Numbered from the stretch's first letter, positions 1,872 through 64,000 are shown. The stretch is 64,000 nucleotides of DNA from Methanothermococcus sp. Ax23 (GCF_049075655.1 NZ_CP157522.1:1152001-1216000); one strand, 5' to 3'. A program made the numbers and translations. The notes: generated from the letters alone by a model not told the origin.

Positions 1872-2318
1872 ATGAAAAAAAGTTTAAAGGTCAAGCCAAT
1901 TGAAAACGGAACAGTAATCGACCACATAAACAAAGGAAAAGCATTAAAAGTTTATAAGGTTTTAAACATAGATAAAAATCAAACTGTAACTATTGCCATG
2001 AATGTGTCATCTGAAAAAAATGAAAAAAAAGATGTTTTAAAGATAGAAGGTATAGAGCTCTCAAAAGAAGATGTAAATAAAATAAGTCTTATATCTCCAA
2101 ATGCCACAATAAACATAATAAAGGATGGAGTTGTTGTAAGAAAATTTAAAGTTGAAATACCCGACACCATAGAAGGTATATTAAAATGCACAAATCCAAA
2201 CTGCATTACTCAGATTGAAAATATTGCCGGTAAATTTAAAGTTGAAGAGAAAGAACCTTTAAAAATAAGATGTGCATACTGTGAAAAATTTTTAAATTCT
2301 ATTGAAATATGTCGATAA
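1872..2318 (+). CDS. pyrI: Aspartate carbamoyltransferase regulatory subunit
   Basis: LKVKPIENGTVIDHI; Zn-binding CTNPNCIT and RCAYCE. Confidence 0.96.
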   Translation: MKKSLKVKPIENGTVIDHINKGKALKVYKVLNIDKNQTVTIAMNVSSEKNEKKDVLKIEGIELSKEDVNKISLISPNATINIIKDGVVVRKFKVEIPDTIEGILKCTNPNCITQIENIAGKFKVEEKEPLKIRCAYCEKFLNSIEICR

Positions 2319-2488
2319 GGTGAAGTACCCCTTCCGTAAGGAAGGGGCTTCCTGCTTCACTGAACGAGCTTGCCATCATCGGTAGTTATTAACACCTAGG
2401 TAGAGGCTCACTTCTCCACAGGCTCACCCCCGCCTCCCGCAGGTGTATGGAGATAGTGTAGAATGGGCTTGGTTTTCACCCATTAACA
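2300..2488 (-). ncRNA. Putative TnpB omegaRNA/sotRNA scaffold plus flanking guide
   Basis: Minus strand reads GAGCCTGTGGAG...GGCAAGCTCGTTCAGTGAAGCAGGAAGCCCCTTCCTTACGGAAGGGGTACTTCAC, the pattern found at tnpB 3' ends; TATA-like AAAAATATAAATA lies about 25 nt upstream; boundaries approximate. Confidence 0.65.
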
Positions 2489-2574
2489 TATTATATCTTA
2501 TGATATCTATTATTTATATTTTTGGTCGGCTCTCATCCCCGCCATTACGGACGGGGTCTTCCCGCCGATATTGG
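2320..2574 (-). mobile_element. Non-autonomous IS200/IS605 (IS1341-like) derivative with both end hairpins and no tnpA/tnpB
   Basis: GC-rich island. Left-end bulged hairpin at 2537-2556; right-end perfect hairpin CCCCTTCC-GTAA-GGAAGGGG at 2328-2347, followed on the minus strand by TACTTCAC; candidate target motif TTTAT (minus strand, 2579-2575) abuts the left end. Confidence 0.8.
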
Positions 2575-2694
2575 ATAAATTAATTGAAATAAAAATAATA
2601 ATAGATAAAAAATAAAAAATGAAATATAACGAAAAAGATATAGATGAAAGATAAGAAAGATATATGAAAGGATATGGAATATTAAGGTGATATT

Positions 2695-3780: not shown

Positions 3781-3970
3781 CTTACAATAATATTTCATAA
3801 AAATCTATTTATTAATATATTATAATATCACACTATTTTAAAATTAAAAATTAAAGTTAAAAATAAATACTATTTGTTATAACCATAATGAGAAATATAT
3901 TTAATTTATAATTTATTATAATTATTATAATTTTTATAGCAATTACAAATATATCATCACAGGTGGAATT

Positions 3971-5410: not shown

Positions 5411-5455
5411 AGAATTAATTTAATAATTATCATTATATTATTTATGGTGAAACAC

Positions 5456-9687: not shown

Positions 9688-10215
9688 ATGATAAAAGTTC
9701 TTTATGATGGTATTTTAATAAGAGATGGCAATAGGATAACGGAAGCATCTTCTTCTATAACATTCATAAAAACAAAAAAACATAACATAATAGTCGATAC
9801 AGCTACAAAGGATAAAAAAGATTTAATTATAAGGGAATTGGATAAATTAGGATTAAAACCAGAAGATATTGATATAGTCATAAATACCCACGACCATTGG
9901 GACCATGTGGAGAATAATGATTTATTTAAAAATGCAAAACTCATAACCTATTATAATTATAGGGAGCTCGACGATGAGGAAATAGAAATTATGGAAACCC
10001 CCGGACATACAGAGGATAGTATTTCAGTAATATATAAAGACTATATCGTTGTTGGAGATGCTTCTCCTTTAAAGGATAATATATTAAAAGACATTGAACC
10101 TAAATTAAACATTGATGAAGAGCTCGCTCTGAATACTCTTAAAAAGATAAAAAGTCTAAAAAAGAATATTATTACAGGTCATGAAGGAATATATTATAAA
10201 GATTCTTATCTATAA
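9688..10215 (+). CDS. Small metallo-beta-lactamase-fold hydrolase
   Basis: THDHWDHVEN, TPGHT, VGDA, TGH. Confidence 0.85.
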   Translation: MIKVLYDGILIRDGNRITEASSSITFIKTKKHNIIVDTATKDKKDLIIRELDKLGLKPEDIDIVINTHDHWDHVENNDLFKNAKLITYYNYRELDDEEIEIMETPGHTEDSISVIYKDYIVVGDASPLKDNILKDIEPKLNIDEELALNTLKKIKSLKKNIITGHEGIYYKDSYL

Positions 10216-10384
10216 AATAGTTTAATTTAAGGTTAGCCATACAATTAATTCTTTATTTTGTGTTTATATTTTTTTAGTTTATTCTTTTTCTATTTTGTAT
10301 TCGTTGAATCAAGTATAATAACGGTTTTAATTAAATATTATGCTTTTGTAGTGTTTCCCCCCACTATGGTCTGATTTTAACTTC

Positions 10385-11539
10385 CTGACAGTGTGAATTA
10401 ACAATACCATCTTTAAAATCAAAAAATAGAAATAGGTAGTAGTTAAATATCTCATTAAAAAACGGTGAATTCAGCATGCTAAAGACATTAAGTAATATGC
10501 TCACTAATTCTATAAATAGTTTAGGATTTAACTGTTCGGAAGAATTATCTAAGTTTGCATTGGTTAGAACGTTAACGCCGATAAAAACTATTAAAGCATT
10601 TTCAGAAAGTATTTCAAAAATCCACAGAACAACTATCGTTAAAAACTTGCAAAAACTCTTCGAAGAAGAGTTTTACTTATACGCTCAATTATTAAACCTT
10701 CCCGACATTTTGAATGACAATAGATTTAAATACGCTGCAATAATCGATTCAACATTATTAAGAAGATGGAGTGAAAATATTTATGGTTGTAGTATTAGAT
10801 ACAATTACATCGAAAATCATAGCAAACTATATCAAGAGCAAATAAACTGCTGTATCTATCACAAAAAAAAGGGCTTTATACTATTCACACTACGATAAAA
10901 CCACTCGACAAAAAATCCACAAACATATTTATTGAAATCATTGAATTTTTATCTCAAACTAACATCAGGACGGTTATAGGGGACAGTTTTATCACAACAA
11001 AGAAAATTCTAAAGGGATGTAAGGGATTGGGAATCGAATACATTGGCAAACTTAGGAAAAACATTATAATCGAGTTTTTCAGTAAGAAGGTTAAAGTGGA
11101 AGAATTGTTCGAAAAGGATTTTCAAAAAAGAAAGTTCAAATTAAGGACGATTAATGGAATAGAGTTCAAATTATCCGATAGGATTGTGAATATTCCAAAT
11201 GTTGGCAAGGTTAAAATCGTTGCTGTGCAAATGGAAAATCAGAAAAAACCTAAGTATTTAGTCTCTACAAACTATAAAAAGAAGGCAGAGAACATTATAA
11301 TCGAGTATATGAAGAGACCAAAGATAGAAGAAAAACATAAAAGGGATAAATCGATTTTAGAAGTTGAAGGGAATTACATAACTTCTGAAAAGAGTAATAT
11401 TGGATTCATTAGATTTATGGCGGTAGTATCAAACTGCATCGAATACTTAAGCTACAACTATGGATTATCGTTTTATGAAATCGTTAAAAAGTGTGGTAAA
11501 GAACTAATAAAGAAAGGAATATCATAATCACACTGTCAG
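10385..11539 (+). mobile_element. IS element (IS4-superfamily DDE; IS701/ISH3-like), 1155 bp
   Basis: 12-bp perfect TIR CTGACAGTGTGA (10385-10396 and 11528-11539); 7-bp target duplication TAACTTC (10378-10384 and 11540-11546). Confidence 0.92.
10476..11527 (+). pseudogene. DDE transposase split by a -1 frameshift at the A8 run near 10863-10870
   Basis: ORF1 has AIIDST; the -1 frame continues KKGLYTIH...VIGDSF...YMKRPKIEEKHKRDK (Y-R-E-K motif). Confidence 0.85.
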
Positions 11540-14293
11540 TAACTTCAAATACAGTGAGTTCCGCAGTCTCAACAGTAAGTAGCTATTTCCATCCCACTAT
11601 GGTCTGATTTTAACGATATTATGGCATTTAGTTTTAAAGAGATAATCGACTATTTCCATCCCACTATGGTCTGATTTTAACATCCCTGCCTTGATTGTCA
11701 CTATAATATTTACATATATATTTCCATCCCACTATGGTCTGATTTTAACGCTTTTCTTACGAATCCTTTTTTATCCTCTAATGTCATTTCCATCCCACTA
11801 TGGTCTGATTTTAACCCAAGATGTCGTAAAATCATTGAATAAGAAAAAAATAATTTCCATCCCACTATGGTCTGATTTTAACAATTCTTCATCATTTCTT
11901 TTTAGTATTAATTTATATTCTTCCCAATTTCCATCCCACTATGGTCTGATTTTAACTTTTTTTATAAACCTTTTTAGGCGGTTTTTATGACATGTGGAAA
12001 ATTTCCATCCCACTATGGTCTGATTTTAACGGAACTGGCAAGCCAAGGGATAAAGTGCCCTATCCAAATTTCCATCCCACTATGGTCTGATTTTAACTTC
12101 AACTGATAATGTATAAGTGCTACCTTTTGAGCTATTTCCATCCCACTATGGTCTGATTTTAACGCAGAAAAATACGCTGAAAGGGTTATGGATTATGATT
12201 TCCATCCCACTATGGTCTGATTTTAACTTCGACACAATGGCTGTCGAGATGTTTAAAACTGCATTTCCATCCCACTATGGTCTGATTTTAACACTGTAAT
12301 ATATGACGTCTCAGGAAATAACTTTAAATTTCCATCCCACCATGGTCTGATTTTAACGTATATATGTCAGTATTGCACAAAATATTATACAATTTCCATC
12401 CCACTATGGTCTGATTTTAACAATTTTTCAAATTCTTCTTCTGCTGTTTTTCTGTCAGATTTCCATCCCACTATGGTCTGATTTTAACCAGAAACTATAT
12501 TATAGAGTATATAGAATTTGAAATTTCCATCCCACTATGGTCTGATTTTAACAGCTCAATAGCGAAATTAATGACTTTATTGAATACTATTTCCATCCCA
12601 CTATGGTCTGATTTTAACCTCATTATACTCCAAGTCTTTAAATTCATAAATTAATTTCCATCCCACTATGGTCTGATTTTAACTAATATGATACAGCGAG
12701 AATACATAGAAAACGCAATAAATTTCCATCCCACTATGGTCTGATTTTAACTGATTCCGACACAGTAGATTCATACGCTGTGGGAGATGATTTCCATCCC
12801 ACTATGGTCTGATTTTAACATGTATTTATCATATGTCGCAACAATATCAAAGAAAGCATTTCCATCCCACCATGGTCTGATTTTAACTTCGTTTTTAATG
12901 TTTCGTATGACTCGTTATAGCAAACATTTCCATCCCACTATGGTCTGATTTTAACTTTGAGATAGCATAGAATATACCGCCACCTATTAACAATTTCCAT
13001 CCCACTATGGTCTGATTTTAACATATTTCCTGATATGTTGTTCTGTATGTTCTTTTTAATTTCCATCCCACTATGGTCTGATTTTAACTAAAGAAGTTGC
13101 AAATAAATATGGTATGAGTTATATGATTTCCATCCCACTATGGTCTGATTTTAACCTTTTAGGAGCTCCCGCACAATCCTTTTTCGAATTAGATTTCCAT
13201 CCCACTATGGTCTGATTTTAACGAACCGTTAAGCTTTCCAGCCGATTATATGGCAATAGAATTTCCATCCCACTATGGTCTGATTTTAACCTCATTATAC
13301 TCCAAGTCTTTAAATTCATAAATTAATTTCCATCCCACTATGGTCTGATTTTAACTAATATGATACAGCGAGAATACATAGAAAACGCAATAAATTTCCA
13401 TCCCACTATGGTCTGATTTTAACCTAAATAAAATGTTTTTAATGGTGTTAAATCAACATTTCCATCCCACTATGGTCTGATTTTAACGTTGAAAAATGCA
13501 TTATAGAACCGAAAGGAATAACAATTTCCATCCCACTATGGTCTGATTTTAACGAGACCATTTCCAGCATTCACTTGTAGGCGGTTGTTAGATTTCCATC
13601 CCACTATGGTCTGATTTTAACGAAGAAGAGATTCAAAGAATTAAAAAAATCTTAGATTTCCATCCCACTATGGTCTGATTTTAACAGCATTTACATCAAG
13701 AAGTTGTAAAAAGATATTAGAATTTCCATCCCACTATGGTCTGATTTTAACAGCATTTACATCAAGAAGTTGTAAAAAGATATTAGAATTTCCATCCCAC
13801 TATGGTCTGATTTTAACATCTGACCCAGTATGGAAGTAGGCGGTAGGTCCAGGAAGATTTCCATCCCACTATGGTCTGATTTTAACTTCATACGCACGGT
13901 TCTTAAAGAAGATGAGGGTATAAAATTTCCATCCCACTATGGTCTGATTTTAACAAAAAATAAAATTATATGGGTAATAGATAGATTTTCATATTTCCAT
14001 CCCACTATGGTCTGATTTTAACCCCAGAAATGCACGAATACAACACGATACCAACTCCTGATTTCCATCCCACTATGGTCTGATTTTAACATCATGAATG
14101 TAATAAAGGAGACTTTTTAATCGGATTTCCATCCCACTATGGTCTGATTTTAACAAATATCACCTTTGCATATTATACTAATACATAATAATATATTTCC
14201 ATCCCACTATGGTCTGATTTTAACCATAAACATCTTTTTCTTTATCCTTGATAAAATCAATATATTTCCATCCCACTATGGTCTGATTTTAAC

Positions 14294-14550: not shown

Positions 14551-14753
14551 AATTTATTAATTATATCAAAAATAATAGACATTTACGACGAAAGTAGGGG
14601 AGATATTTTCAAAAATAGAAAAAGAATAACCAATATTATAAAAAAATAATAGTTAATAGTAAGGATTTAAAACCTACACATTTTACTCATGGAATTTTTT
14701 CACGAAATTATCTTAAAGAATTAATATATTCAGAGCTCCGACCACCAATAAAA

Positions 14754-25251: not shown

Positions 25252-25427
25252 ATAATCCCCTCTTTTACTTTTTAACCTATCAGTATATATCTATCTATAT
25301 CTATTATTATATATTGTGTGGTTATCATATAATTACATAGCGGTTTAAAACTATATTGTGTTATATTTATATACCATTTAATATCAAAAATGGTATTTAT
25401 GAAAATTTTAAACGAGAAAGTGAAATC

Positions 25428-31430: not shown

Positions 31431-31822
31431 AATAAATAAAATAATATTAAAAAAGCATCAATCCGAGATTACATATTAATCCTTAAAATAACAAATAATA
31501 AACATAAAATCAATAAAATCAAAAATAAGATTATTTGCCAAGGATAAATACTAATTTAAGAAATTCTAACTATTCCAAAGAACCGTGAAATCCCCCATCT
31601 CCCATCTTCAAAACCATATTTTATAACTAAAATCTAATCAGTAGTAGAGCTCCTACAATCATATTTAATCTAAGTATAAATTGTGAAAAACTTATTAGTT
31701 TTTTATTTTCTATTATCAATATTTTTATACAATAAAAAACAAATTATAAAAGTAAATATGTTATTAATACTAATGTTCATAATAATGACACATACAAAAA
31801 TATATAAAAAGAGGATGATAAT

Positions 31823-43698: not shown

Positions 43699-46600
43699 AT
43701 GGTGCATTTATCCGAGATTCATTTAAAAAATTTCAAATCATTTAAAAACGCCAAATTAAAAATACCTTCTGGATTTACGGCAATATTGGGTCCCAACGGC
43801 TCAGGGAAGTCAAATATAATCGACGGAATATGTTTTGTTCTTGGAAAAACATCTGCAAAATCACTGAGGGCAGGAAAATTCAATGAGTTAATTACCTATC
43901 ACAAAAACAAAAGAGCAGATTATGCAGAAGTGATTTTATTTTTTGATAATAAGGATAGAAAGATTCCAATAGATTCTGACAAGGTTGGAATATCGAGAAA
44001 GGTAAAATTAAAGGGAGATAACAATTACTATTTAATATGGTATGAGAAGAAAGAAGGGAAGGAAGGTAAAGAAGAGAAAGAAGGAAAAGACAACAAACCA
44101 ATAGAAAAACGAAAAAAAATGAAAAAATCCCAAATAATAGACATATTCAACAGAATTTCACTAAGTGGGGATGGATTAAATATTATTCTTCAAGGAGACC
44201 TTATAAGATTAATTGAAATGTCCCCAAGGGAAAGAAGAAAGGTAATTGATGAAATAAGCGGGATTTCGGAATATGATGAAAAAAAGGAAAAATCACAAAA
44301 AGAATTGGAAAAAGCGAGGGAATATATTGAAAAAATAGACATAAGAATAAACGAAGTAAGGGCAAACCTTGAAAAACTTAAAAAAGAAAAGGATGATGCG
44401 GAGAAGTATCTAAAACTAAGCGAGGAGTTGAAAACTACAAAATACATACTTACTTCAAAAAAGGTAGAGCTCCTAAAAGTTGTGCTGGAAGATACTGAAA
44501 AAAATATAAATGCCCTAAAAGAATTAAAGGAAAAATTTCAGGGCGATATGCATAATATAGATGGTGAAATACTTAATTTAAAAAATAAGCTTGAAAATAT
44601 TATAAATGAATTAAAGGAAAAGGGAAACGAGGAAGTAATGGAGCTCCACAAGTCCATAAAGGAACTTGAATTAAATATTGAAAATGATAAGAAACAGCTT
44701 AACAATAGTTTGGATGATTTAAAGAATTCAAAAACTCAGTTAGAAATTAAAGAAAAGGAATTAAATGAAACTCGGGAAAAGATAGACAATATAAGAAAAG
44801 AAACGATGGAAAAGGAAAAGGAAATAAAAACCATCAAAGAAACCATAAAAAATTTAGAGGATGAAAGGAGCTCCTTAAAATCATCTGTGGAGAAAAGTGA
44901 AACTCACATAAACATACTCAAACAGCAAGAAAGAAAGCTTTCCGAGAGATTAAATGAATACCAAAAGGAACTGCACAAGTTAAGAACTGAATTAAACGAT
45001 GTAGATGGGAAAATAAATAAAAAATCCTTTGATTTAAAACGAAACAATGAAACTATTGAAAAACTGAAAGAAGAGCTTAATTTAATAAATAAAAATACCG
45101 ATGATACAAAAACTCTTTATAAGGAACTTGAAGATATTGTTGTGGAATTGGAATTTTCAAAGAAGATGTTGCAAAAATATGAGGATGAGAAGAAGGAGCT
45201 CCAAAGTAAAAGAGATAACTTATACTCAGAATACGCCAAGGAAAATGCAAAAATTAAGGCATTAAAGGAGATGGAAAATTTCAATGTAAATAGCACAATA
45301 AAAAGCATATTGGACGCTAAACTTCCCGGCGTTGTGGATATTGTTGGAAATCTCGGAAAAACAAAAAATGAGTATAAAACAGCAATTGAAATTGCAGGGG
45401 GAGGAAGGTTAAACCATATCGTAGTTAAGAGGATGGATGACGGAGCTCGGGCGATAGAGTATTTAAAAAGAAACAAACTTGGAAGGGCTACATTTTTACC
45501 TATGGACAGAATAAGGGGAAATGAACCACGCCACATAAATGAGGATGGAGTAATTGGAAGAGCCGTTGATTTGGTGGAATTTAAGGAGGAATATAGAAAC
45601 ATATTCAATTATGTGTTTGGAAACACCATTATTGTAAAGGATTTGGAAACTGCGAAGAATCTTTCAAAAAAGTATAAAGTTAGGTTCGTATCTCTTGAAG
45701 GGGATGTTGTGGAGGCTTCTGGTGCTATGGTTGGGGGAAGTATCAGGCGGTCTTCAAATATAAAGGTTGAAATAGACACTTCAAAGCTTGAAAAACTTGC
45801 AAATGAGTTAAAGGAAATAGAAAATAAACTAAACGGTGCTGATGGAATAAATAACAAGATTGACGAGATTAGCAGAAAGATAAACATATATTCCGCTAGG
45901 AAGATGGAATTAGAAAATAAATTGAGACTTATAAAAGAAAATGAAAATAGAAAAATGGATATTATTAAAAATAATAATACAAAAATAAAAGAAATTGAGC
46001 TGATAAATAAAAAACTTGGGGATGAACTGGAAGAACTGGAAGATTTAAAAGAAGAATTAGAGCATAAAATAAAAAATCTTGAAAATAAAATCGATGAGAC
46101 AATATCCACGAGGGAAAGGGTATTGAAGGAACTGAAATCATACGAAGACTCCACACTTATAAAAAGAATTAGGGATGTGGAGGGTGAAATAGAAACACTT
46201 AGTAAAAAGAAGGATGAACTGGAAAATGATACAAAACGAAATGCAGTTCTTATAAAAGAAGTTCTCATTCCTAAGATGGCAGAAACTACTGAGAAAATAA
46301 AAGAATTAAATGAAAAAATAGCCATGCTTCAAAAAAATATAGAGTTTTATAAGAACAATATTGAAAAAAATGTGCAAGTTTTGAGGGATAAGAAGGAGAG
46401 ATATGTAGAGCTCACCAAAGATTTGGAAGAGCTCACTGAGAAAAAGGCAATGTATGAAAAGCAAATAGAGGAACTAAACAATAACAAAAAAGAACTTATT
46501 GAAAAGATTGGCGGTATTAATAAAGAAATAAACACACTATTGATTGATAAGGCAAAATACGAAACTCGATTGGAAGATGAAGAGAAAAAACTTTATTTAT

Positions 46601-47289
46601 GTGAAAAAATCGAAGATGTGTCTGATGAATTATTTAATAAAATAAGTGCTATGGAAATAAATGAGCTGGAAAAGTATGTCATAAAACTTGAAAATAGTAT
46701 AAAAAGACTTGAACCAATAAACATGAGGGCTATTGAGGATTACGAGTATATAGAAGAAAGATATAAAGAGTTATTTGATAAAAGGAAAGAATATGAAGAA
46801 GATGAGAAAAAATATCTTCAATTAATCGAAGAAGTTGAGAAGAGGAAGAAAGAGGTATTTATGGAAGTATATGAAAAGATTGCCAAAAATTACGAGGAGA
46901 TATATAAGGACATTGGAGGAACTGGAAAATTGAGTTTAGAAAATCCTGAAAATCCATTTGAAGGAGGACTTTTAATCGATGCCTCACCGAGAAACAAAAG
47001 CCTTCAAAGTTTAGATGTGATGAGTGGTGGGGAAAAATCCTTAACTGCACTGGCATTCCTCTTTGCTATTCAGAGATTAACTCCTGCACCGTTCTATGTG
47101 CTTGATGAGGTTGATGCGGCACTTGATACAAAAAATGCGACGCTAATAGGTGATATGATTAAAAATGCGTCAAAGGAATCTCAATTTGTAGTAATATCTC
47201 ATAGAGAACAGATGATAAGTAAGGCGGATACACTTTATGGAGTTTATATGGAAGATGGATTAAGTAAGATTGTAGGTGTTAAGTTATAA
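43699..47289 (+). CDS. smc: Chromosome segregation protein SMC
   Basis: NFKSF, GPNGSGKSN, hinge GRATFLP, MSGGEKS, LDEVDAALD. Confidence 0.97.
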   Translation: MVHLSEIHLKNFKSFKNAKLKIPSGFTAILGPNGSGKSNIIDGICFVLGKTSAKSLRAGKFNELITYHKNKRADYAEVILFFDNKDRKIPIDSDKVGISRKVKLKGDNNYYLIWYEKKEGKEGKEEKEGKDNKPIEKRKKMKKSQIIDIFNRISLSGDGLNIILQGDLIRLIEMSPRERRKVIDEISGISEYDEKKEKSQKELEKAREYIEKIDIRINEVRANLEKLKKEKDDAEKYLKLSEELKTTKYILTSKKVELLKVVLEDTEKNINALKELKEKFQGDMHNIDGEILNLKNKLENIINELKEKGNEEVMELHKSIKELELNIENDKKQLNNSLDDLKNSKTQLEIKEKELNETREKIDNIRKETMEKEKEIKTIKETIKNLEDERSSLKSSVEKSETHINILKQQERKLSERLNEYQKELHKLRTELNDVDGKINKKSFDLKRNNETIEKLKEELNLINKNTDDTKTLYKELEDIVVELEFSKKMLQKYEDEKKELQSKRDNLYSEYAKENAKIKALKEMENFNVNSTIKSILDAKLPGVVDIVGNLGKTKNEYKTAIEIAGGGRLNHIVVKRMDDGARAIEYLKRNKLGRATFLPMDRIRGNEPRHINEDGVIGRAVDLVEFKEEYRNIFNYVFGNTIIVKDLETAKNLSKKYKVRFVSLEGDVVEASGAMVGGSIRRSSNIKVEIDTSKLEKLANELKEIENKLNGADGINNKIDEISRKINIYSARKMELENKLRLIKENENRKMDIIKNNNTKIKEIELINKKLGDELEELEDLKEELEHKIKNLENKIDETISTRERVLKELKSYEDSTLIKRIRDVEGEIETLSKKKDELENDTKRNAVLIKEVLIPKMAETTEKIKELNEKIAMLQKNIEFYKNNIEKNVQVLRDKKERYVELTKDLEELTEKKAMYEKQIEELNNNKKELIEKIGGINKEINTLLIDKAKYETRLEDEEKKLYLCEKIEDVSDELFNKISAMEINELEKYVIKLENSIKRLEPINMRAIEDYEYIEERYKELFDKRKEYEEDEKKYLQLIEEVEKRKKEVFMEVYEKIAKNYEEIYKDIGGTGKLSLENPENPFEGGLLIDASPRNKSLQSLDVMSGGEKSLTALAFLFAIQRLTPAPFYVLDEVDAALDTKNATLIGDMIKNASKESQFVVISHREQMISKADTLYGVYMEDGLSKIVGVKL

Positions 47290-47346
47290 GCAAAGATGCA
47301 ATTTAAATAAAAATTCTATTTTTAAAAATAGGTTGGTGGTGATAAT

Positions 47347-49449
47347 ATGAAAAAAGAGCAAATAACAAAAAATATTACAGTTCCAAATAAAAATATGGAA
47401 ATCCTTAAAAAATATTTTTCTCATTGTTTTGATAAAAATGGAAATTTTGATTTTGAAAAATTCAAAAAAGAACTTTCTAAAAATGAAATGGACTTTTCCA
47501 AAGAATCTTATGGTATGGATTGGTTGGGAAAATCTTATGCTCGACTTTTAGCAAGTGATGAAGCAAGGACTCTTTTAAAAGAAAATGAAGAATGGAATAA
47601 AAAAGAGGAACATAAAAATTCTGAAAATCTTCTTATTAAAGGGGATAATTTAGAAGTTTTAAAGCACTTATCAAATGCTTATTATGAAAAGATAAAGATG
47701 ATTTATATTGACCCGCCATATAATACTGGAAATGATGGTTTTGTTTATCAGGATGATAGAAAATTTACAGTTGAAGAATTTTCAAAGTTGGCAGGAGTTG
47801 ATGAGGAAAAGGCAAAAAGAATTTTGGATTTTGTAGATAGCAAAAGTAATTCCCATAGTGCATGGCTTACCTTTATGTATCCAAGATTATACATTGCAAG
47901 GCAACTTTTAAGAGATGATGGAGTTATTTTTGTAAGTATTGATGATAATGAGGTTGCACAATTAAGAATTTTAATGGATGAAATTTTTGGGGAAGAGAAT
48001 TTTGTTGGAATTATTACAAGAGTCACTAAAAAAGGAGGAAATAAAGGTGATTTCTTAAAACCAAAAAAAGACTTCATCATTACTTTTTTCAAAGATTTAA
48101 GTAAGGTTTCTAAAGAAAATTTTGGAAAGCAAATACTAATTGATAAAGACAAAATAGATTGGAAAGAGGAAATTTTTAACGGTAAAAAAAGAAGATTTAT
48201 AATTGGTGATATACCTTATAGAGAAAAACTAGAGGTAAGAAAAAATCAAAGGTATTATATAGAAGCCCCAGATGGAACACTTTTAATTCCCAAAGGAAAT
48301 GTTTTTCCAAAAGAAAAAAAAGATGGAGCAACGGTTGAACCGCAATCTGAAGAAGATAAATGCTGGACTTGGTCGGTAGATAGATATCTTGAAGAAAAGA
48401 AAAAAGGTAGATTCTATTTTTTAAAAAGTGATAAATCACCTTTTTTAGATGAAAATGGAAAACAAGCAAAATGGACTGTATATAAAAAAATATTTGAAGA
48501 TGAACTAACGACAAAAACAGAAGTTTTAACAGATTTACTCGTAGATAACAAATTTGAAAACTCAAAAGGAACTAAGGAGTTAGACCTTTTAAAAATTCCG
48601 TTTAGCAATCCTAAGCCAACAAATTTAATTAAATACTTGATAGATATATCTTGTAATAAAAACGACTTAATCCTCGACTTCTTCGCAGGTTCAGGAACAA
48701 CAGGAGATGCTGTAATGCAACTTAACGCCGAAGATGGAGGAAACAGAAAATATATTTTAGTTCAACTTGATGAACCTATTGACCCAAAGAAAAATAAAAC
48801 CGCTTACGATTTTGTGAAAAATGAATTAAAAGTTGAAAATCCTACAATTTTTGAAATTACAAAAGAAAGATTAATTAGAGCAGGAAAGAAAATAAAAGAA
48901 GAAATAAATAAATCCATTGAAGAAAAAGAAAACGAGATAAAAAAACTTAAAAGTCAATTAACAGACAATAGCGAAAAAATAGAAAAACTTAAACAAGAAA
49001 TTGAAAACTTAAAAAATCAAGATTTAGGTTTTAAAATATTTGAAACAATTCCAATTTGGGAAGATTATAATTTTGAAGCAGAAAAATTTGACCCACAATT
49101 AAAACTTTTTGACGAAAGCAAACTAACCGAAGAAGATTTAAAAACACTTCTTACAACATGGAAAACTTATGACGGCATACCTTTAACAAAAAACCTAAAT
49201 GAAATAGATTTAGACGGATACAAAGGATATTATTATGAAAATAAACTTTATTTAATACATAAAGGATTTACTACAAAAAACCTAAAAAAATTATTAACTG
49301 AAATTGATGAGAATGAAAATTTCAACCCTACAACAATCATATCTTTTGGATATAATTTTGAAAGTAAATCTTTAAGAGAAATCGCAGAAAATGTAAAAAA
49401 TTACGCTAACAAGAAACAAATAAATATTGATTTTATAATTAGATACTAA
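47347..49449 (+). CDS. mod: Type III R-M methyltransferase subunit Mod (amino-MTase, beta arrangement)
   Basis: IKGDNLEVLK, IYIDPPYNTG, WLTFMYPRL, LDFFAGSGTT. Confidence 0.93.
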   Translation: MKKEQITKNITVPNKNMEILKKYFSHCFDKNGNFDFEKFKKELSKNEMDFSKESYGMDWLGKSYARLLASDEARTLLKENEEWNKKEEHKNSENLLIKGDNLEVLKHLSNAYYEKIKMIYIDPPYNTGNDGFVYQDDRKFTVEEFSKLAGVDEEKAKRILDFVDSKSNSHSAWLTFMYPRLYIARQLLRDDGVIFVSIDDNEVAQLRILMDEIFGEENFVGIITRVTKKGGNKGDFLKPKKDFIITFFKDLSKVSKENFGKQILIDKDKIDWKEEIFNGKKRRFIIGDIPYREKLEVRKNQRYYIEAPDGTLLIPKGNVFPKEKKDGATVEPQSEEDKCWTWSVDRYLEEKKKGRFYFLKSDKSPFLDENGKQAKWTVYKKIFEDELTTKTEVLTDLLVDNKFENSKGTKELDLLKIPFSNPKPTNLIKYLIDISCNKNDLILDFFAGSGTTGDAVMQLNAEDGGNRKYILVQLDEPIDPKKNKTAYDFVKNELKVENPTIFEITKERLIRAGKKIKEEINKSIEEKENEIKKLKSQLTDNSEKIEKLKQEIENLKNQDLGFKIFETIPIWEDYNFEAEKFDPQLKLFDESKLTEEDLKTLLTTWKTYDGIPLTKNLNEIDLDGYKGYYYENKLYLIHKGFTTKNLKKLLTEIDENENFNPTTIISFGYNFESKSLREIAENVKNYANKKQINIDFIIRY

Positions 49450-49481
49450 CATTTAGATAGATTTACAGGGAGCGGATTAAA

Positions 49482-52361
49482 ATGACAGTATTTAATTTTG
49501 AAAAAAATTTAGAGCATCAAACTAAGGCAGTAAAATCAGTTGTTAGCGTTTTTGATGGAGTAGAAATAATAAAACCAACGGGAATAAAAAAGGACTATGT
49601 TAATCCAATATTTAATAAAGATACCAATTTTAGATATGTTCAAAACATTGGAAACATTCAAGAACAAAACAATATTGAAAGAAGCGTAAAAGGAAAAAGC
49701 AACATCATAGATGTTATGATGGAAACAGGGACAGGAAAAACCTATACATATACAAAAACCATTTTTGAATTAAATAAACTTTATGGAATTTTTAAATTTG
49801 TTATTGTAGTACCAACAATACCTATTAAAGCAGGAACGATTAATTTCTTAAAATCAGAAAGTGCAAGGGAACATTTTAAAGAACAATACGGAAAAACAAT
49901 AGAACTCCATATTGTAGAAAGTAAAAAAAACAGTAAAAATAAAAAATCTTATATGCCACAGGCAGTAAGTAGTTTTGTAAATGCTGGAAGTTTTGAAAAA
50001 AATAAAATCCATGTTTTAATTATAAATAGGGGCATGATTAATTCCAAAACAATGCAACAAAAATTTGATAGGACTTTATTAGATGAATATACAACACCAT
50101 TTGAGGCAATATCATCTACTAAACCATTTATGATTATTGACGAACCACATAAATTTGACAAAGATAAAAAGACATGGCAAAATATCCAAAAAATGAAGCC
50201 CCAATTTATCATCAGATACGGAGCTACCTTTAAAGAATATGAAAACCTTGTTTATACCCTAACGGCGGTTGATGCATTTAATAGAAATTTAGTAAAAGGT
50301 GTTGAGGGACACATTATTGATTTCGAAGAAGGAAAAAATGTTTTGGTTAAGTTTGTTAATTCTGACGGAAAAGAAGCAACATTTGAACTTATTGAAAACG
50401 GTAAAAAAAAGAAGTTTAAACTAATTAAGGGGGAAAGTTTAGAAAAAATACATAATAACATGAAAGATTTGTTTATTGAAAAAATCAATAAAACAACTGT
50501 TGTTTTATCTAATGGTTTAGAGTTAGTAAAGGGTCAAAAAAGCAGTGAGATAAATCCATATTCTTATAGTGAAACATTAATGGAGTTAATGATTAAAAAG
50601 GCAATACAAAAACATTTTGAATTAGAGAAACAATATTTAACAAGAGAAGTAAAAATAAAACCACTAACATTATTTTTTATAGACAATATTAAAGAATACA
50701 GAAATGAAAATGGATATATTAGAAAAACAGTTGAAAAATACATAGAAGCAGAAGTTAAAAAGTTATTAAAAACTGAAAAAGATGAATTCTACAAAGCATA
50801 TTTAAAAAAGACATTAGATGATATTTCAAAAACTCATGGAGGATATTTTGCCGAAGATAAAAAAGAGACTGATGAGGTGATAGAAAAAGAGATTAATGAA
50901 ATTTTACACGATAAACAGGCAATTCTTGATTTAGAAAATCCAAGAAGATTCATTTTTTCAAAATGGACTTTAAGAGAGGGCTGGGACAATCCAAACATTT
51001 TCCAAATCTGTAAATTAAGAAGTAGCGGTTCTGAAATTTCAAAATTGCAAGAAGTGGGAAGGGGTTTAAGATTACCTGTAAATCAATACGGAAATAGAGT
51101 AAAAGACGAACAGTTTTATTTAAATTATTTTGTCGATTTTACAGAAAGCGATTTTGTAGATAAATTAGTAAATGAAATAAATGAAAAATCTGGAACTCTA
51201 TCAATAAAAAATATTCCTAAAAAACTAAATGATGAAATGATTAAAAAAATTTGTGAGATTTACAAATTGGATGAAGAAGAATTATTAGAAGAATTGGACA
51301 ATAAAAATGTCATTAAAAGAAATAATGAATTTAAAGAAGGTGGATTTGAATATATAAAAGCAAATTATCCACTTATCTTTAAAGGAATTGATTCAAATAA
51401 AATAAGAAATGCAAAAGATAAAAAGAAAAAGGTTAAAATAAGAACAGAAAAATATAGCGAATTAAAAGAACTCTGGGAAAAACTTAATGAAAAAGTCATC
51501 TTAGAATATAAAATTGAAAATGAAGACAAATTTAAAGAACTTTTCAAAAACTTTTTAGAAAACAATACTTCTTTTTCAATTAAAGGAATAAATGAGAAAA
51601 TAGCGAAAATATCTATTGAAAATAATCAAGCTACCACCATGGAAGAAACTACCATTTCTGAAAATGAAGTAATACCTATTCCAACAATGAGATACGACGA
51701 GTTTTTAAAACAACTATCGGAGCTCCTACATACAAACCTAAAAACATTACATCAATGTTTCGTAGAAACAAAAATAAATATAAATAAATATTTAAATCAA
51801 TCTACAATTAGAATCATTAAACAAAAATTTGATAATTACTTAATGTATAATGCAATTGATAAATTTGGCATTGAATATCAAAAAATAACAAATACAATTC
51901 ATCCAACAAAATTTACTGATAAAAATGGAAATGTAATAAATGAAATTGATGCTTCCCTAATTGGAACTTTGTATTCTAACGAGAAAGTAGCAGAAAATTA
52001 TTTTTTTAATGAATTGTTTTATGATTCAGAATTAGAAAAAGAAAATATAACAGAGAGAATAAAAGAAGTAATTGTTTTTACAAAAATACCTAAAAATTCA
52101 ATTAAAATTCCAATTGCAGGAGGTAAAAGTTATTCTCCTGATTTTGCCTATGTTTTAAATTTTGAAGACGGGCAGAAAAAACTATATTTTATTGTAGAAA
52201 CAAAAAATGTAGATGATGAAGATAAATTGAGACCTGAGGAAGCACAAAAAATAAAATATGCCGAGAAATTTTTTAATAATAATATAAAAATAAAGTTTAA
52301 AACACAATTTAGCAGTAAAAAAATAGCAGACCTAATCCAAGAAATATATACAGAACCATAG
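49482..52361 (+). CDS. res: Type III R-M restriction subunit Res
   Basis: METGTGKT, IIDEPH, LREGWDNPN, QEVGRGLRL, C-terminal SPDF...VETK nuclease motif. Confidence 0.93.
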   Translation: MTVFNFEKNLEHQTKAVKSVVSVFDGVEIIKPTGIKKDYVNPIFNKDTNFRYVQNIGNIQEQNNIERSVKGKSNIIDVMMETGTGKTYTYTKTIFELNKLYGIFKFVIVVPTIPIKAGTINFLKSESAREHFKEQYGKTIELHIVESKKNSKNKKSYMPQAVSSFVNAGSFEKNKIHVLIINRGMINSKTMQQKFDRTLLDEYTTPFEAISSTKPFMIIDEPHKFDKDKKTWQNIQKMKPQFIIRYGATFKEYENLVYTLTAVDAFNRNLVKGVEGHIIDFEEGKNVLVKFVNSDGKEATFELIENGKKKKFKLIKGESLEKIHNNMKDLFIEKINKTTVVLSNGLELVKGQKSSEINPYSYSETLMELMIKKAIQKHFELEKQYLTREVKIKPLTLFFIDNIKEYRNENGYIRKTVEKYIEAEVKKLLKTEKDEFYKAYLKKTLDDISKTHGGYFAEDKKETDEVIEKEINEILHDKQAILDLENPRRFIFSKWTLREGWDNPNIFQICKLRSSGSEISKLQEVGRGLRLPVNQYGNRVKDEQFYLNYFVDFTESDFVDKLVNEINEKSGTLSIKNIPKKLNDEMIKKICEIYKLDEEELLEELDNKNVIKRNNEFKEGGFEYIKANYPLIFKGIDSNKIRNAKDKKKKVKIRTEKYSELKELWEKLNEKVILEYKIENEDKFKELFKNFLENNTSFSIKGINEKIAKISIENNQATTMEETTISENEVIPIPTMRYDEFLKQLSELLHTNLKTLHQCFVETKININKYLNQSTIRIIKQKFDNYLMYNAIDKFGIEYQKITNTIHPTKFTDKNGNVINEIDASLIGTLYSNEKVAENYFFNELFYDSELEKENITERIKEVIVFTKIPKNSIKIPIAGGKSYSPDFAYVLNFEDGQKKLYFIVETKNVDDEDKLRPEEAQKIKYAEKFFNNNIKIKFKTQFSSKKIADLIQEIYTEP

Positions 52362-52516
52362 TTTCCACCATGCTTAATATTTATTATTTCTCTCTAAGGA
52401 GCTCATAGCAACATCATAATTATAAAAATTAATGCTATCTTAATCATAAGTGAAAAGAAAAATAATATATAATAATAATAAAAAAAGGAAATGGTATAAA
52501 AATTAACGGTGAAAAC

Positions 52517-58648: not shown

Positions 58649-58785
58649 TTTTTATCCCTTTAATAGGTATATCTATTTTATATCAATAATTATTATATCA
58701 TTTAACTTATAATAACTTTTTTATTTAAGTTTTTAGAATACCTAAATAACTAAAATGAAATAAAATTAAAATACATGGTGAAAAA

Positions 58786-59502: not shown

Positions 59503-59630
59503 TAATTTATACGATAAGAGTAATAAGATAGTGAGTGAGGAAAATAAAAAATAAAACAATAAACAAAATAAATAAAACAGAACATAAAAAAATAAAAAAA
59601 TTAATGTAAAAATGTAAAAAAGGTGAATAT

Positions 59631-60209: not shown

Positions 60210-60223
60210 ATTCAATGAAAGTA

Positions 60224-60985: not shown

Positions 60986-61129
60986 ATTATCACATCAATA
61001 TACTATAAATATAACTAAAAAATATAACTATTTATGTTATATATTATCCAATTTTAATCATTATTTTCATTTTCATTATTTAATGTATATTATAATTTAA
61101 ATAACCCAAATAATTTAAAGGTGTAGAGT

Positions 61130-62779
61130 ATGGCAGTTAAGGTCAAAAATTTATCTAAAAATTACGGTAAAAAAAAGGTGCTCGATAATATTAGTTTTGA
61201 AGCTAAAAAAGGAGAAGTATTAGGGATAATCGGTAAATCAGGTGCAGGGAAATCCACACTGATTAGAATTTTAAGAGGGACCGATAAGGAATACAGCGGC
61301 GAGATTGAAATTTGCGGTAGAACCGATAATTTTAGGGAAATTACTGCGATACATTTACAAAGGAACTTTGCACTATGGGCTGAACCTGCAATATACAACA
61401 TAATAAGGAAATTATATGCCATAAGAAACAATTCCGACGAATCCCTACCTATGGAAGATGAATGGGAAGAATACGAAAAAACCGCAATAGAGATTTTGAA
61501 ATTAGTTGGATTGGAGCATAAAAAGGAAGCATTTTCAAACATACTCAGCGGTGGAGAGAAACAGAGGTTAATATTGGGAAGGCAGATAGCTAAAATATAC
61601 GAAAAAGGAGAAGGAGTTTTACTACTTGATGAACCAGCTACAATGTCATGTCCAGCTTCAAAACAGATTTTGTTAGATGTTTTAAAAAATATCAATGAAA
61701 AATTAAATATTACAATGGTAATCACATCCCATCTTCCAGAAATTCACGAATACCTATGCGATAGATGTATTCTTTTAGAAGAAGGAGTTATAAAATTGGA
61801 GGGGGAACCAAAAGAAGTAATTAATGAATTTTTGAGAGATATGGAAGAACCATATGTTAGAAAAACCACTCCAAATGACAAGAATATTATAAGTGTAAAT
61901 AATGTATCCAAAAGATATTTTGTTGTGCATGGTGGAGAAACCCTTAATATGAAGGATGTTTCCTTTAATGTGAAAGAGGGCGAGATATTATCTATTATTG
62001 GACCAAGTGGAACTGGAAAATCCGTTCTTTTAAGACTTCTCGGCGGTGTTGAATCCCCTGACAAAGGAAATATAATTGTTGATGGAATAGATTTAAACGA
62101 CTATGGATGGGAAAGAGTAAATTTAAGAAGAAGAATGGGAATTATGCATCAGGAGTTTTCATTAACTCACTATCTACCTGTTGAGGATATGCTAAAATAT
62201 AGACTTGGAATTAAAGGGGAAAAAGCGGTGGCAAATGCAAAATTAAAATCCCAAGAGCTCGGCATATCTCCAAAAGTTGTAGATGCCATCTATCAGTTGA
62301 TTGACCTTCCAGAACAGGAAATGAAAAACAAACTTGGAAAATTGGGCATATCTGAGGATGTAGTAAAAATGCTCTTCCCTGCTGTTGTGGATGAGTTCCA
62401 TCCAAAAGATGTCCTTAGAGCTCTTGACTTGGATGAGGAGATTTTGAAGAAAACACCATTGGAACTAAGCGGCGGTGAAAAGGTAAGGGTTGCTCTTGCA
62501 TTGCAGCTTATAACAAAACCTAAAATTTTATTACTTGATGAGCCATTTGGTGATTTAGACCCGATTACACTTAGGGATGTTTCAAACTATCTTAAAAAGA
62601 TAAATGATGAGTTTGGAACTACTATGGTATTGATAAGCCACCATATCCAGCTAATTAAAGAAATAAGCGACAGAGCAATATTAATAGATGAGGGAAAAAT
62701 AATAATGGATGGAAAGCCAGAAGATGTCTGCAATACATTTATTGAAAGAAGCAATTCAAAGTTTTCACTTACGAAGTAA
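61130..62779 (+). CDS. Dual-domain ABC ATPase related to methyl-CoM reductase component A2 (AtwA paralog)
   Basis: GKSGAGKST and GPSGTGKS, two LSGGEK signatures, no TM segments, AIHLQRNFALW. Confidence 0.8.
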   Translation: MAVKVKNLSKNYGKKKVLDNISFEAKKGEVLGIIGKSGAGKSTLIRILRGTDKEYSGEIEICGRTDNFREITAIHLQRNFALWAEPAIYNIIRKLYAIRNNSDESLPMEDEWEEYEKTAIEILKLVGLEHKKEAFSNILSGGEKQRLILGRQIAKIYEKGEGVLLLDEPATMSCPASKQILLDVLKNINEKLNITMVITSHLPEIHEYLCDRCILLEEGVIKLEGEPKEVINEFLRDMEEPYVRKTTPNDKNIISVNNVSKRYFVVHGGETLNMKDVSFNVKEGEILSIIGPSGTGKSVLLRLLGGVESPDKGNIIVDGIDLNDYGWERVNLRRRMGIMHQEFSLTHYLPVEDMLKYRLGIKGEKAVANAKLKSQELGISPKVVDAIYQLIDLPEQEMKNKLGKLGISEDVVKMLFPAVVDEFHPKDVLRALDLDEEILKKTPLELSGGEKVRVALALQLITKPKILLLDEPFGDLDPITLRDVSNYLKKINDEFGTTMVLISHHIQLIKEISDRAILIDEGKIIMDGKPEDVCNTFIERSNSKFSLTK

Positions 62780-62808
62780 GTGAGCAACGAAAACCGTAAG
62801 GTTTTCGT
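62765..62808. repeat. Two adjacent perfect hairpins overlapping the stop codon of the ABC ATPase gene
   Basis: TCACTTAC-GAA-GTAAGTGA (62765-62783) and ACGAAAACC-GTAA-GGTTTTCGT (62787-62808). Confidence 0.7.
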
Positions 62809-62894
62809 CTAATTGAGTAAATAAAGGAAATAACCTTTATTTTTTTATATTTTTATTAGTATATTATTTATTTTATCATAATAGGGTGATTTTA

Positions 62895-64000
62895 TTGATA
62901 GAGATTGATAAAAGGGCATACAATTCTATTTTAAATTTTTCAAGAATTATCTACAAAAATGCAGTATTAAATAAAGAGGATTTGCCAGATAAGGAGCAGA
63001 TAATAAAATTATATTATAAAAATAAATTTGTAGCTAAGGCAATATATGATAGCGGAGCTCCGACAATTAAAATACTAACTCTAAAAGATGAAGAGATAAA
63101 CAAGGACTTTTTTTACAATAGAATAAAAAAAGCTAAGGAATATAGGGAGTATATATTGAATTATAAAGATACATACAGGATGATATATGCAGAGGCGGAT
63201 TGTTTGCCTTCAATCATACTTGATAAGTATAACAACATAGCATCAATGCAGGTGTCTTCAAAAGTTATGGAAAAATACATTCCTATTATATTTGAATGTT
63301 TAAATGAACTTACTGATATCAATACACTCTATGTTCAAAGTGCAAAAAAAGGAAGTAAAATAAAATCAAAAATATATGGAGATAAAAACAATATTGAAAC
63401 CATAATAAATGAAGGAAATGCGAAAATTAAGGTAAATTTAAAGGGACATAAAACTGGATTCTTCTTAGACCAAAGAGAAAATAGGATAGATTTAGAGAAT
63501 TATGTTAAAAAAGGAGATAAAGTTTTAGATATTTGTTGTTATACTGGTGGTTTTTCTGTCCATTGTGGCATAAAAGGGGCGGAAGTCGTAGGAGTTGATA
63601 TGTCAGATAAGGCGTTGGAGGTTGCAGAGGAAAATATGGAACTGAATAATATAAAGAATTATAACTTCATTGTAGGAAATGCCTTTGATGTAATGAGGAA
63701 AATGATTGATAAAAACGAAAAATTCGATATTGTAATTTTAGACCCGCCGGCTTTTACAAAATCGTCAAAGGATGTTAAAAATGCGTTGAAGGCATACAGC
63801 ACAATGAATTACTTAGGATTAAAACTTGCAAAGAGGATGTTTATCACATGTTCCTGTTCTCACCATATCGATAGAGAGATGTTTAAAAACATGGTGGTCT
63901 CTTCTTCATTAAGGGCTAAAAAAGAAATTAGGCAAATTGGAGGATACAGAACTCAATCCCCCGACCATATAATAACAATGGCGAATAAAAATTTGGAGTA
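62895..64000 (+). CDS. RlmI-like class I SAM-dependent rRNA methyltransferase (runs off the window)
   Basis: Manual translation from TTG 62895 after a GGTGA RBS: GHKTGFFLDQRENR, VLDICCYTGGF, VILDPPAF, TCSCSH. Confidence 0.9.
   Translation, partial: MIEIDKRAYNSILNFSRIIYKNAVLNKEDLPDKEQIIKLYYKNKFVAKAIYDSGAPTIKILTLKDEEINKDFFYNRIKKAKEYREYILNYKDTYRMIYAEADCLPSIILDKYNNIASMQVSSKVMEKYIPIIFECLNELTDINTLYVQSAKKGSKIKSKIYGDKNNIETIINEGNAKIKVNLKGHKTGFFLDQRENRIDLENYVKKGDKVLDICCYTGGFSVHCGIKGAEVVGVDMSDKALEVAEENMELNNIKNYNFIVGNAFDVMRKMIDKNEKFDIVILDPPAFTKSSKDVKNALKAYSTMNYLGLKLAKRMFITCSCSHHIDREMFKNMVVSSSLRAKKEIRQIGGYRTQSPDHIITMANKNLE

Follow-up and report, generated by a model that had tools for sequence, protein, structure and literature searches.

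The hexanucleotide GAGCTC is found 2,089 times in the 1.67-Mb genome (31.9% GC) of the archaeon Methanothermococcus sp. Ax23 (referred to here as G000), and it is very probably a genuine highly iterated palindrome (HIP)-like motif, maintained by a sequence-specific force that acts at the level of DNA. The excess was noticed in a stretch of 64,000 nucleotides of contig C1 (NZ_CP157522.1:1152001-1216000 of GCF_049075655.1; C1:1152001-1216000), hereafter the window, for which an initial annotation had proposed a system comparable to HIP1 of cyanobacteria. Comparison of the Mch gene region with named loci agrees with an assignment to Methanothermococcus, the closest record being 97% identical. The explanation that we favor, with a probability of about 0.35, is that GAGCTC is recognized by a Dpd-type system encoded on the chromosome. 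Hyper-abundant short words such as HIP1, uptake sequences and Chi are rare and point to sequence-specific machinery with genome-wide action; to our knowledge, none is established in Archaea.

The window contains exactly 87 GAGCTC sites, the first at 2055 and the last at 63055-63060, as against a mean of 3.97 (standard deviation 1.93, largest value 9) in 100 dinucleotide-preserving shuffles, none of which reached 87. The by-eye figures of the initial annotation, about 87 sites where about 4 are expected and about 40 copies of the six end-variants, were thus accurate, the end-variants totaling 39. In the window the word is read 44 times as GAG-CTC, 27 times as xGA-GCT-Cxx and 8 times as xxG-AGC-TCx, the sites at 18957 and 37981 being of this last kind, and 8 sites fall outside open reading frames (ORFs) of at least 90 amino acids. 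The three intergenic examples that had been singled out are located as described:

14733..14738, intergenic GAGCTC site
31647..31652, intergenic GAGCTC site
52399..52404, intergenic GAGCTC site

The excess is not confined to the window. A genome-wide hexamer comparison, which had been suggested as a check, places GAGCTC first among the 4,096 hexamers by the ratio of observed to expected occurrences (O/E), which is 16.8 from composition (order 0), 19.7 at order 1 and 13.1 at order 2. A maximal-order Markov model gives an O/E of only 1.6, a value that is uninformative because the pentamers GAGCT and AGCTC are mostly copies of the motif (4,178 of 5,138 GAGCT in both-strand counts). As much as 41% of all AGCT is spelled GAGCTC, the remaining NAGCTN words showing O/E values of 0.32-1.28, and GGAGCTCC is about 105-fold above the composition expectation. 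The sites are evenly spread over the genome, with 49-78 per full 50-kb bin and a near-Poisson next-neighbor spacing (coefficient of variation 1.09), although 11 site-free gaps longer than 5 kb were observed where 3.9 are expected. A weak flank preference, with G at position -1 in about 34-38% of the sites, extends to noncoding DNA. A longer repeat or mobile element was discarded as the source of the word, since the commonest 10-mer accounts for 54 of 2,085 sites. The plasmid-like contig C2 (7,732 bp) carries four GAGCTC where a fraction of one site is expected from composition, so that C2 is either a long-time resident or subject to the same pressure as the chromosome.

Codon usage and amino-acid sequence do not account for the excess, contrary to the outcome that would have spoken against the original proposal. 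Coding controls were based on 1,555 crude ORF calls (at least 90 amino acids, 85.7% of the genome), which are not curated gene models. Within them, 1,941 GAGCTC were found, compared with 191 expected and a maximum of 229 in 30 synonymous shuffles (an alternative null gives about 119), distributed over the three frames as 1,098/620/223 as against 83/82/26 expected from the shuffles. Called ORFs hold 93% of the sites, and noncoding DNA contains 145 where 8.5 are expected. When existing sites were frozen and removed from the codon pool, only about 43 further GAGCTC arose. Glu-Leu pairs are written GAG-CTC in 28% of cases (1,098 vs about 37-66 expected), and GAG precedes 39% of CTC codons. The word occupies 28%, 72% and 19% of the positions permitted by the amino acids in frames 0, 1 and 2, with odds ratios over codon-usage expectation of 41, 33 and 13, respectively (10-63 in the other enriched genomes described below), and codon-aware nulls leave it 10- to 45-fold in excess. 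Similar odds ratios across frames are as expected of one DNA-level force of moderate per-site strength. The presence of the excess in all three frames as well as in noncoding DNA bears out the earlier statement that it is frame-independent and not a single codon-pair effect.

Among 31 relatives, only five genomes are enriched: G000 (2,089 GAGCTC), G012 (2,070), G010 (1,645), G003 (1,321) and G013 (1,515), the last belonging to the sister genus g2 and the other four to genus g1. Most non-enriched relatives have 26-229 sites, and four of them (G005, G008, G007 and G002) have 4-16; when all 40 genomes of the order Methanococcales were considered, the same five were enriched. In 400-kb samples, O/E was 21.7 for G012, 16.8 for G010 and 10.4 for G013. 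In G010 the word is embedded in an octamer dialect, GGAGCTCC making up 317 of 415 sampled GAGCTC sites and 1,259 of 1,645 genome-wide, with G at position -1 in 84% of the sites and 81 copies of GGGAGCTCCC. At sites common to G000 and G010, a flanking G/C was gained in G010 at 37 half-sites, the reverse being found at 2. On the other hand, G005 (complete, 1.50 Mb) avoids every AGCT word (O/E 0.14; 535 AGCT and 14 GAGCTC genome-wide), and two named Methanothermococcus records are nearly devoid of AGCT. In a tree of one gene, CarB (30 rows), G012, G003, G000 and G010 are basal branches of genus g1, G013 lies outside it, and the eight non-enriched congeners group in a single derived clade (support 100/99). 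The enriched set is therefore paraphyletic, and the tree together with the genus labels indicates an ancestral trait with a later loss, the force directed at GAGCTC having been active since before the g1/g2 split. A single genus thus offers hexamer, octamer, neutral and AGCT-purging genomes as natural controls. As for individual congener loci, AGCT was seen 5 times in 15 kb of one (L012) and once in 13 kb of another (L013). A PF01555 methylase of about 255 amino acids is present with near-identical scores in the low-count genomes G005, G015, G021 and G029, which hints at a putative AluI-like restriction-modification (R-M) system.

Comparison of orthologous sites, a check that the initial annotation had also proposed, was carried out on reciprocal-best-hit codon alignments of 244-300 genes per genome and showed that the sites are conserved. 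Retention of GAGCTC between G000 and G012 is 87%, compared with a joint survival of 11-19% predicted from non-motif GAG (50% survival) and CTC (22-39%) codons; for G010 the corresponding figures are 36-66% vs 4-8% and for G013 28-51% vs 5%, so that retention is 5-10 times the matched codon expectation. Counted simply as intact hexamers, 80% of the G000 sites are found in G012, compared with 43% for arbitrary hexamers. At positions with identical amino acids, a G000 site corresponds to a site in G012 at 87-97%, in G010 at 36/61/75% by frame and in G013 at 28/66/64%, whereas positions without a G000 site carry GAGCTC in the other genome at 0-19%; a G000 site is therefore predictive of a site elsewhere, with odds ratios from 2.8 to more than 100. 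In noncoding DNA, 8 of 14 alignable sites are intact in G012, as against 16% expected from flank identity, although the number is small. Flank identity around the sites is 0.92-1.13 of expectation (mostly 1.0-1.1), that is, conservation ends at the edge of the hexamer. GAGCTC is kept site by site, as a unit, in all coding frames and in noncoding DNA, and the force responsible has sharp six-base edges (eight bases, GGAGCTCC, in G010). G005 has kept 1 of 341 aligned sites.

Turnover between G000 and G012 is symmetric (35 vs 31 discordant positions with the same amino acids). The one-mismatch neighbors of GAGCTC are at 0.65-1.39 of the null, with the exception of words containing GATC or GCGC, which are avoided, and GGGCTC (2.1). 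Changed sites differ at three positions in 12 of 54 cases, compared with about 6% predicted (p=7e-5), an excess driven by one comparison direction. Around discordant sites, local identity is 0.834 within 10 nt and 0.855 at 50-60 nt, compared with 0.87 in the surroundings of concordant sites, and the divergence is most marked within 20 nt; patch-wise replacement would fit this pattern, as would a mere relaxation of local constraint. An origin of the sites by 6-bp insertion was rejected, since most aligned orthologous positions are substitutions (not separately quantified).

The pressure is strong enough to bend protein sequence: the O/E of Glu-Leu is 1.14-1.25 in enriched genomes vs 0.92 in G005, and Gly-Ala-Pro, encoded by GGA-GCT-CCN, is 6.8-fold over-represented in G010. 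Besides, the density of GAGCTC is 1.48/kb in core genes vs 0.94/kb in genes without a G005 homolog, and several low-GC islands of G000 have no site at all. Two GAGCTC-free regions of the window, with the genes concerned, are the following:

46435..51719, longest GAGCTC-free stretch of the window (5.3 kb, GC 27.6%), spanning most of a type III R-M cassette
47347-49449, + strand, type III Mod, 700 amino acids, with an N6_N4_Mtase and an EcoP15I C-terminal domain
49482-52361, + strand, type III Res, 959 amino acids, with a ResIII and an endonuclease domain
10126..13162, GAGCTC-free 3 kb with one copy of a five-copy insertion sequence (IS)-like gene pair
10476-10898, ORF of the pair, 140 amino acids, no Pfam match
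11027-11527, ORF of the pair, 166 amino acids, weak match to ISC1217-type transposases

The cassette (47347..52361) has one GAGCTC in 5 kb of low-GC DNA and is likely a recent acquisition in which the motif has not yet accumulated; it was discarded as the agent, the other enriched genomes being without it. The IS-like pair is also present in G012, and its five copies in G000 (the others lie near 55.5, 794.4, 1084.0 and 1327.7 kb) have zero GAGCTC. In practice, the word separates native from recently acquired DNA in these methanogens, and it may matter for genetic tools, such as the design of donor DNA, in Methanothermococcus and its relatives.

The core of the original inference, namely a frame-independent process at the DNA level that retains GAGCTC, is upheld by an excess found in every frame and outside coding sequence, by conservation at orthologous positions, by a lineage dialect and by the lack of the word in young DNA. 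The methyltransferase and repair mechanism put forward with it is not supported, and its other two options, uptake bias and a binding site, gained no positive support. The Dpd candidate described below, the octamer, and the loss of the word and avoidance of AGCT in congeners had not been anticipated. According to the sources consulted (PMC4390886, PMC5861425), cyanobacterial HIP1 (GCGATCGC) resembles GAGCTC in several respects: it is a short, GC-rich palindromic word with a genome-wide over-representation of 15-fold or more, in every frame as well as outside coding sequence; its conservation from one genome to another exceeds what codons and amino acids explain; and some lineages have variants of the word while others have lost it. 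GAGCTC differs in being another word (6 to 8 nt) that is found in Archaea, not in cyanobacteria, and in an AT-rich genome, as well as in its flat one-mismatch pattern, in that no cognate DNA methyltransferase was found, and in that the candidate modifier is a guanine transglycosylase and not a methylase. In its statistics and its evolution it behaves as HIP1 does, but no methyltransferase was found to accompany it, and we have therefore not filed it as a member of the HIP1 family. As a preserved self word, it is comparable in its working to HIP1, DNA uptake sequences and Chi. No excess of GAGCTC or GGAGCTCC was found reported for any archaeon in the literature searched, of which the supplementary tables (PMC4060949, PMC4390886, PMC10113651) may hold lists.

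The orphan methyltransferase with site-directed mismatch repair, which was the first mechanism suggested, is not supported, and in the phyletic profiling of methyltransferase, Vsr and glycosylase families that had been called for, no family tracks the enrichment. Searches with PF00145, PF01555, PF02384 and PF02086, which distant families may escape, rendered no methyltransferase common to the five enriched genomes; no C5 methyltransferase was found in G000 or G003, and none of the strong PF01555, PF02384 or PF02086 enzymes is common to the five, G010 having a single strong candidate. The D12 methylases of G012 and G003 were considered as complementary agents and rejected, since the G012 gene adjoins a DpnII nuclease and belongs to a GATC system. 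Neither Vsr nor NucS was found in the enriched genomes, HhH-GPD paralogs do not correlate with the trait (a small paralog is scattered), and a Vsr-like repair halo was rejected, the one-mismatch neighbors not being depleted beyond the range given above. The SacI endonuclease family PF09566 had no match in the five enriched genomes, a negative that is uninformative since the control was likewise silent in 14 of 14 reference genomes. A membrane-anchored PLD-family (Nuc-like) protein of 196 amino acids, encoded at 1260-1850 of the window, is present in 11 of 18 family f1 relatives beside G000, whereas neither family f2 nor the high-GC congeners gave a match; it occurs in all enriched genomes but also in non-enriched genomes of g3 and g4 and in G002, G007 and G008, and was therefore rejected as the agent. 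A TctA-like gene, whose homolog is required for natural transformation in M. maripaludis, was rejected for lack of correlation, being intact in G005 and G004, which have lost the motif. In G012, this gene appears split into two ORFs of 149 and 305 amino acids (C1:516935-518076).

The candidate that emerged derives from the 319 ORFs of G000 without a G005 homolog, of which annotation covered 32 in clusters that G010 or G013 also have:

C1:1537329-1542521 of G000 (outside the window), Dpd-like cluster: weakly DpdC-like gene, UvrD-type helicase, PD-(D/E)XK nuclease and DpdA

The DpdA protein is full length, scoring 426.6 bits with the equivalog model NF041059 (cut-off 200) and 411 bits with PADLOC DpdA. 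The first gene of the cluster (150 amino acids) matches DUF6884 and has weak, partial hits to YaaA (1.4e-7) and to PADLOC DpdC (7.9e-7), the latter covering about a quarter of the DpdC profile. With 18 GAGCTC in 5.2 kb, the cluster is denser in the motif than the genome as a whole (mean 1.25 per kb). The search for DpdA and the nuclease covered all 31 genomes, that for the helicase five besides G000. The three occur together in G000, G013 and G010, the only ones of the five enriched genomes with DpdA above the cut-off, and their identities (DpdA/nuclease/helicase) to the G000 proteins are 81/77/84% in G013 (genome median 76%) and 70/67/66% in G010 (median 76%). None of the three was found in G012 or G003, and neither DpdA nor the nuclease was found in any of the eight congeners that lost the motif; among the 26 other genomes, the cluster is present only in G028. 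In G010, where it sits between housekeeping genes, an extra gene of 552 amino acids, GmrSD_N/DUF262 with SspE-like hits, lies between the nuclease and DpdA. This is the type of protein as which DpdB is described in the literature. No DpdB model scored, and a look for the gene in five other genomes, made without a positive control, gave no match. In G000 and G013 the nuclease directly adjoins DpdA, with no DpdB-like gene between them. McrBC-type genes (McrC of 427 amino acids and an AAA_5 McrB-like protein of 675) are located at C1:1527725-1531046, about 6 kb upstream of the cluster, with which they form a small defense neighborhood.

The cluster shares with the Dpd system of Salmonella Montevideo (dpdA-K) a DpdA equivalog of full length and partners of the helicase and nuclease type, and its small first gene is weakly DpdC/YaaA-like. 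In that system, as far as the consulted part of the report goes, modification by DpdA/B blocks only PvuII (CAGCTG) and needs a C after the target G, with CxGCxG as a partial motif, so that CAGCTG has the same N-AGCT-N' palindromic form as GAGCTC, with the target G followed by C (PMC10164549). DpdC has been described as DUF328 and DpdB as ParB-like in the source at hand (PMC5699537). The archaeal cluster differs from that of Salmonella in its compactness (four genes, five in G010, vs about 20 kb), in that no DpdB-like gene was found in G000 or G013, and in its location on an archaeal chromosome with vertical-looking inheritance. As for the bacterial Dpd hosts, in which less than 0.1% of G is modified (10.1101/2023.04.13.536721), we know of no report of a hyper-abundance of the target word. 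We found no report of a chromosomal Dpd system in Methanococcales in the literature, supplementary files lying outside the search.

Several observations favor a link between this cluster and the motif. GAGCTC and CAGCTG are palindromes of the same AGCT-core class, and the history of the cluster, ancestral and lost in the derived clade, parallels that of the trait. The only octamer genome, G010, is the one with a distinct cluster, carrying the extra DUF262/SspE-like gene. In G003, which is closely related to G000 and is without the cluster, the density of GAGCTC per Mb is about 25% lower than in G000, transition neighbors are more numerous (576 vs 475 per Mb), and comparison of a 9.8-kb locus of the two rendered 10 shared sites, 3 present only in G000 and none only in G003. 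By this mechanism, DpdA would swap a G in the DNA at GAGCTC for a 7-deazaguanine, and the modified palindrome would act as a mark of self, much as Chi or methylated HIP1 does, its reader being the linked helicase and nuclease or else the machinery of uptake or recombination. Resident DNA would profit slightly from each added site, so that sites would build up gradually and then be kept, and DNA acquired of late would be without them. We put forward only tentatively the full proposal that archaeal DpdA recognizes GAGCTC (GGAGCTCC with a DpdB-like partner) as a Chi- or HIP1-like self mark, and that selection multiplied the word about 20- to 45-fold, reshaping proteins, in what would be the first HIP described in Archaea. 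Were the link true, it would provide the first recognition sequence for an archaeal DpdA, readable from genome statistics alone, and a function for compact Dpd clusters, and it would tie a base-exchange DNA modification to the evolution of a genome-wide motif.

Our estimate of about 0.35 for the Dpd link results from weighing these points against others, above all the absence of the cluster from G012. This genome is closed and 99% complete and has 2,070 GAGCTC, yet DpdA, the nuclease and the helicase were not found in it, and it shows no decay of the motif, turnover being symmetric and transition neighbors amounting to 398 per Mb vs 475 in G000. If Dpd is the agent, G012 would therefore have lost it very recently. 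Conversely, G028 has the cluster and an ordinary GAGCTC count (130), so DpdA is not sufficient, and no private palindrome was found in 8.7 kb of this DpdA-bearing genome. The decay signal of G003 depends on rounded genome sizes and on 13 sites, and in this genome, which is 90% complete, a gap in the assembly could explain why the cluster is missing. No DpdB-like gene, a requirement of the Salmonella enzyme, was found in G000 or G013, and the specificity of these archaeal DpdA proteins for GAGCTC is a prediction. Moreover, classical restriction logic predicts avoidance, not excess, of a system's own site. Finally, about ten families or gene sets were screened, so that one partial phyletic match is unsurprising.

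A somewhat less probable explanation is that GAGCTC is an uptake or recombination signal, independent of Dpd and read by a protein present in all five enriched genomes, either through a transformation bias like that of DNA uptake sequences and uptake signal sequences (DUS/USS) or as a Chi-like hotspot in polyploid, gene-converting archaea, so that word-bearing alleles are preferentially imported or repaired. This would account for G012 too. DUS of Neisseria and USS of Pasteurellaceae occur about once per kb, lie in coding regions in all frames, distort peptides, have dialects and are depleted in recent acquisitions. GAGCTC shows these hallmarks at about one site per 0.8 kb with a near-Poisson spread, being enriched in core genes, missing from recent acquisitions such as the islands and IS copies, divided into lineage dialects and of moderate per-site strength. 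The location of discordant sites in locally diverged DNA and the excess of three-nucleotide differences are also in line with it, but that divergence may reflect weaker constraint. Besides, known uptake sequences are longer (9-12 nt, against 6-8) and non-palindromic, and we know of no uptake specificity in archaeal transformation. In Neisseria, DUS and receptor have been described to co-vary (PMC3868556, consulted in part), whereas the TctA-like gene, intact in motif-less G005 and G004 and apparently split in enriched G012, does not co-vary with GAGCTC. In favor of this explanation, natural transformation exists in the order (PMC10133366, likewise). Non-enriched genomes have the membrane PLD-family nuclease too, and no candidate reader protein was found. 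Recent work on HIP1, in the portion available, argues for a modification-dependent role in transformation, and a modification-dependent self mark is therefore a natural reading here. Concerning the recombination variant, the pairing in the Dpd-like cluster of a superfamily 1 UvrD-type helicase with a PD-(D/E)XK nuclease is reminiscent of Chi, an over-represented self word of core DNA that modulates the helicase-nucleases RecBCD and AddAB. However, Chi is asymmetric, co-oriented with replication and far less dense than GAGCTC, no archaeal Chi is known to us, and G012 and G003 are without the helicase-nuclease pair.

The remaining explanations appear weaker. It is improbable that GAGCTC is the binding site of an abundant chromosomal protein involved in nucleoid organization, segregation or replication, with selection keeping many copies of the site: the palindromic form with its weak symmetric flank preference (also in noncoding DNA), the even coverage of the genome, the conservation of the sites and the four copies on C2 would fit such a role, but the spacing is Poisson-like and not regular, long gaps are in excess, the footprint ends at six bases and no candidate protein was found. 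A mechanism of the HIP1 type, with an orphan methyltransferase acting on GAGCTC or AGCT and a mismatch repair, linked to it, that turns near-sites into sites, we consider still harder to sustain. The phenomenology matches that of HIP1, AGCT-specific N4-methylcytosine methyltransferases are common in archaea in the material consulted (PMC11033074), and 5-methylcytosine would escape single-molecule real-time sequencing, but no enzyme is common to the five genomes, no C5 methyltransferase was found in G000 or G003, and there is neither a Vsr or NucS match, nor a correlating glycosylase, nor a repair halo. The methylome of M. aeolicus PL15/Hp, a strain that is perhaps not GAGCTC-enriched, comprises CTAG, GTNAC, GCACY, CGAG and an inferred ACGT, with nothing at GAGCTC in the part consulted (PMC10113651). 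In Escherichia coli, Dcm and Vsr cause a repair-driven excess of the modification site CCWGG; in G000, in contrast, Vsr and C5 methylase matches are absent and transition neighbors are at 0.65-1.2 of the null. A signal in RNA, with GAGCUC in transcripts of either strand selected by an RNA-binding or RNA-cleaving factor, is very improbable, since, although it is compatible with strand symmetry and with the high share of sites in called ORFs, noncoding O/E is as high as coding, noncoding sites are conserved, and there would be no reason for an RNA signal to be self-complementary or for a similar density on the plasmid. The view that the word has no present function, having been left behind by a mutational bias of the past or arising merely from codon and amino-acid usage, is effectively refuted: it could rely on the low maximal-order O/E, but this stems from pentamers made mostly of motif copies, and it is contradicted by the codon-aware excess, by retention far above the matched neutral expectation, and by the purging of the word in the congener G005.

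Some further observations concern other palindromes and other regions of G000. Many palindromes are strongly avoided in this genome, among them all hexamers containing GATC, GTAC, CTAG or ACGT, the GTNNAC set and the CTNNAG set (CTGCAG 18, CTCGAG 8, CTTAAG 20 and CTATAG 29 copies); CTCGAG, in which the half-sites of GAGCTC are in swapped order, is absent from the window. The seven family f2 genomes that were sampled, with 8.7 kb from each, all show TAGCTA and AAGCTT at roughly 2-4 times the composition expectation, irrespective of DpdA. A third, very weak TGT/DpdA-like match (18.5 bits) at C1:813850-814371, possibly a viral-type transglycosylase, lies in a 7-kb GAGCTC-free island (about 809-816 kb) of genes without a G005 homolog. 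A run of about 30 small ORFs without a G005 homolog and with few GAGCTC, at about 280-303 kb of C1, looks like an integrated element, and a 184-amino-acid ORF at 291.4-291.9 kb resembles a tyrosine recombinase by eye only. Finally, the topoisomerase I gene at 25356-31004 of the window (1,882 codons) contains two intein-splicing matches and two LAGLIDADG homing-endonuclease domains.

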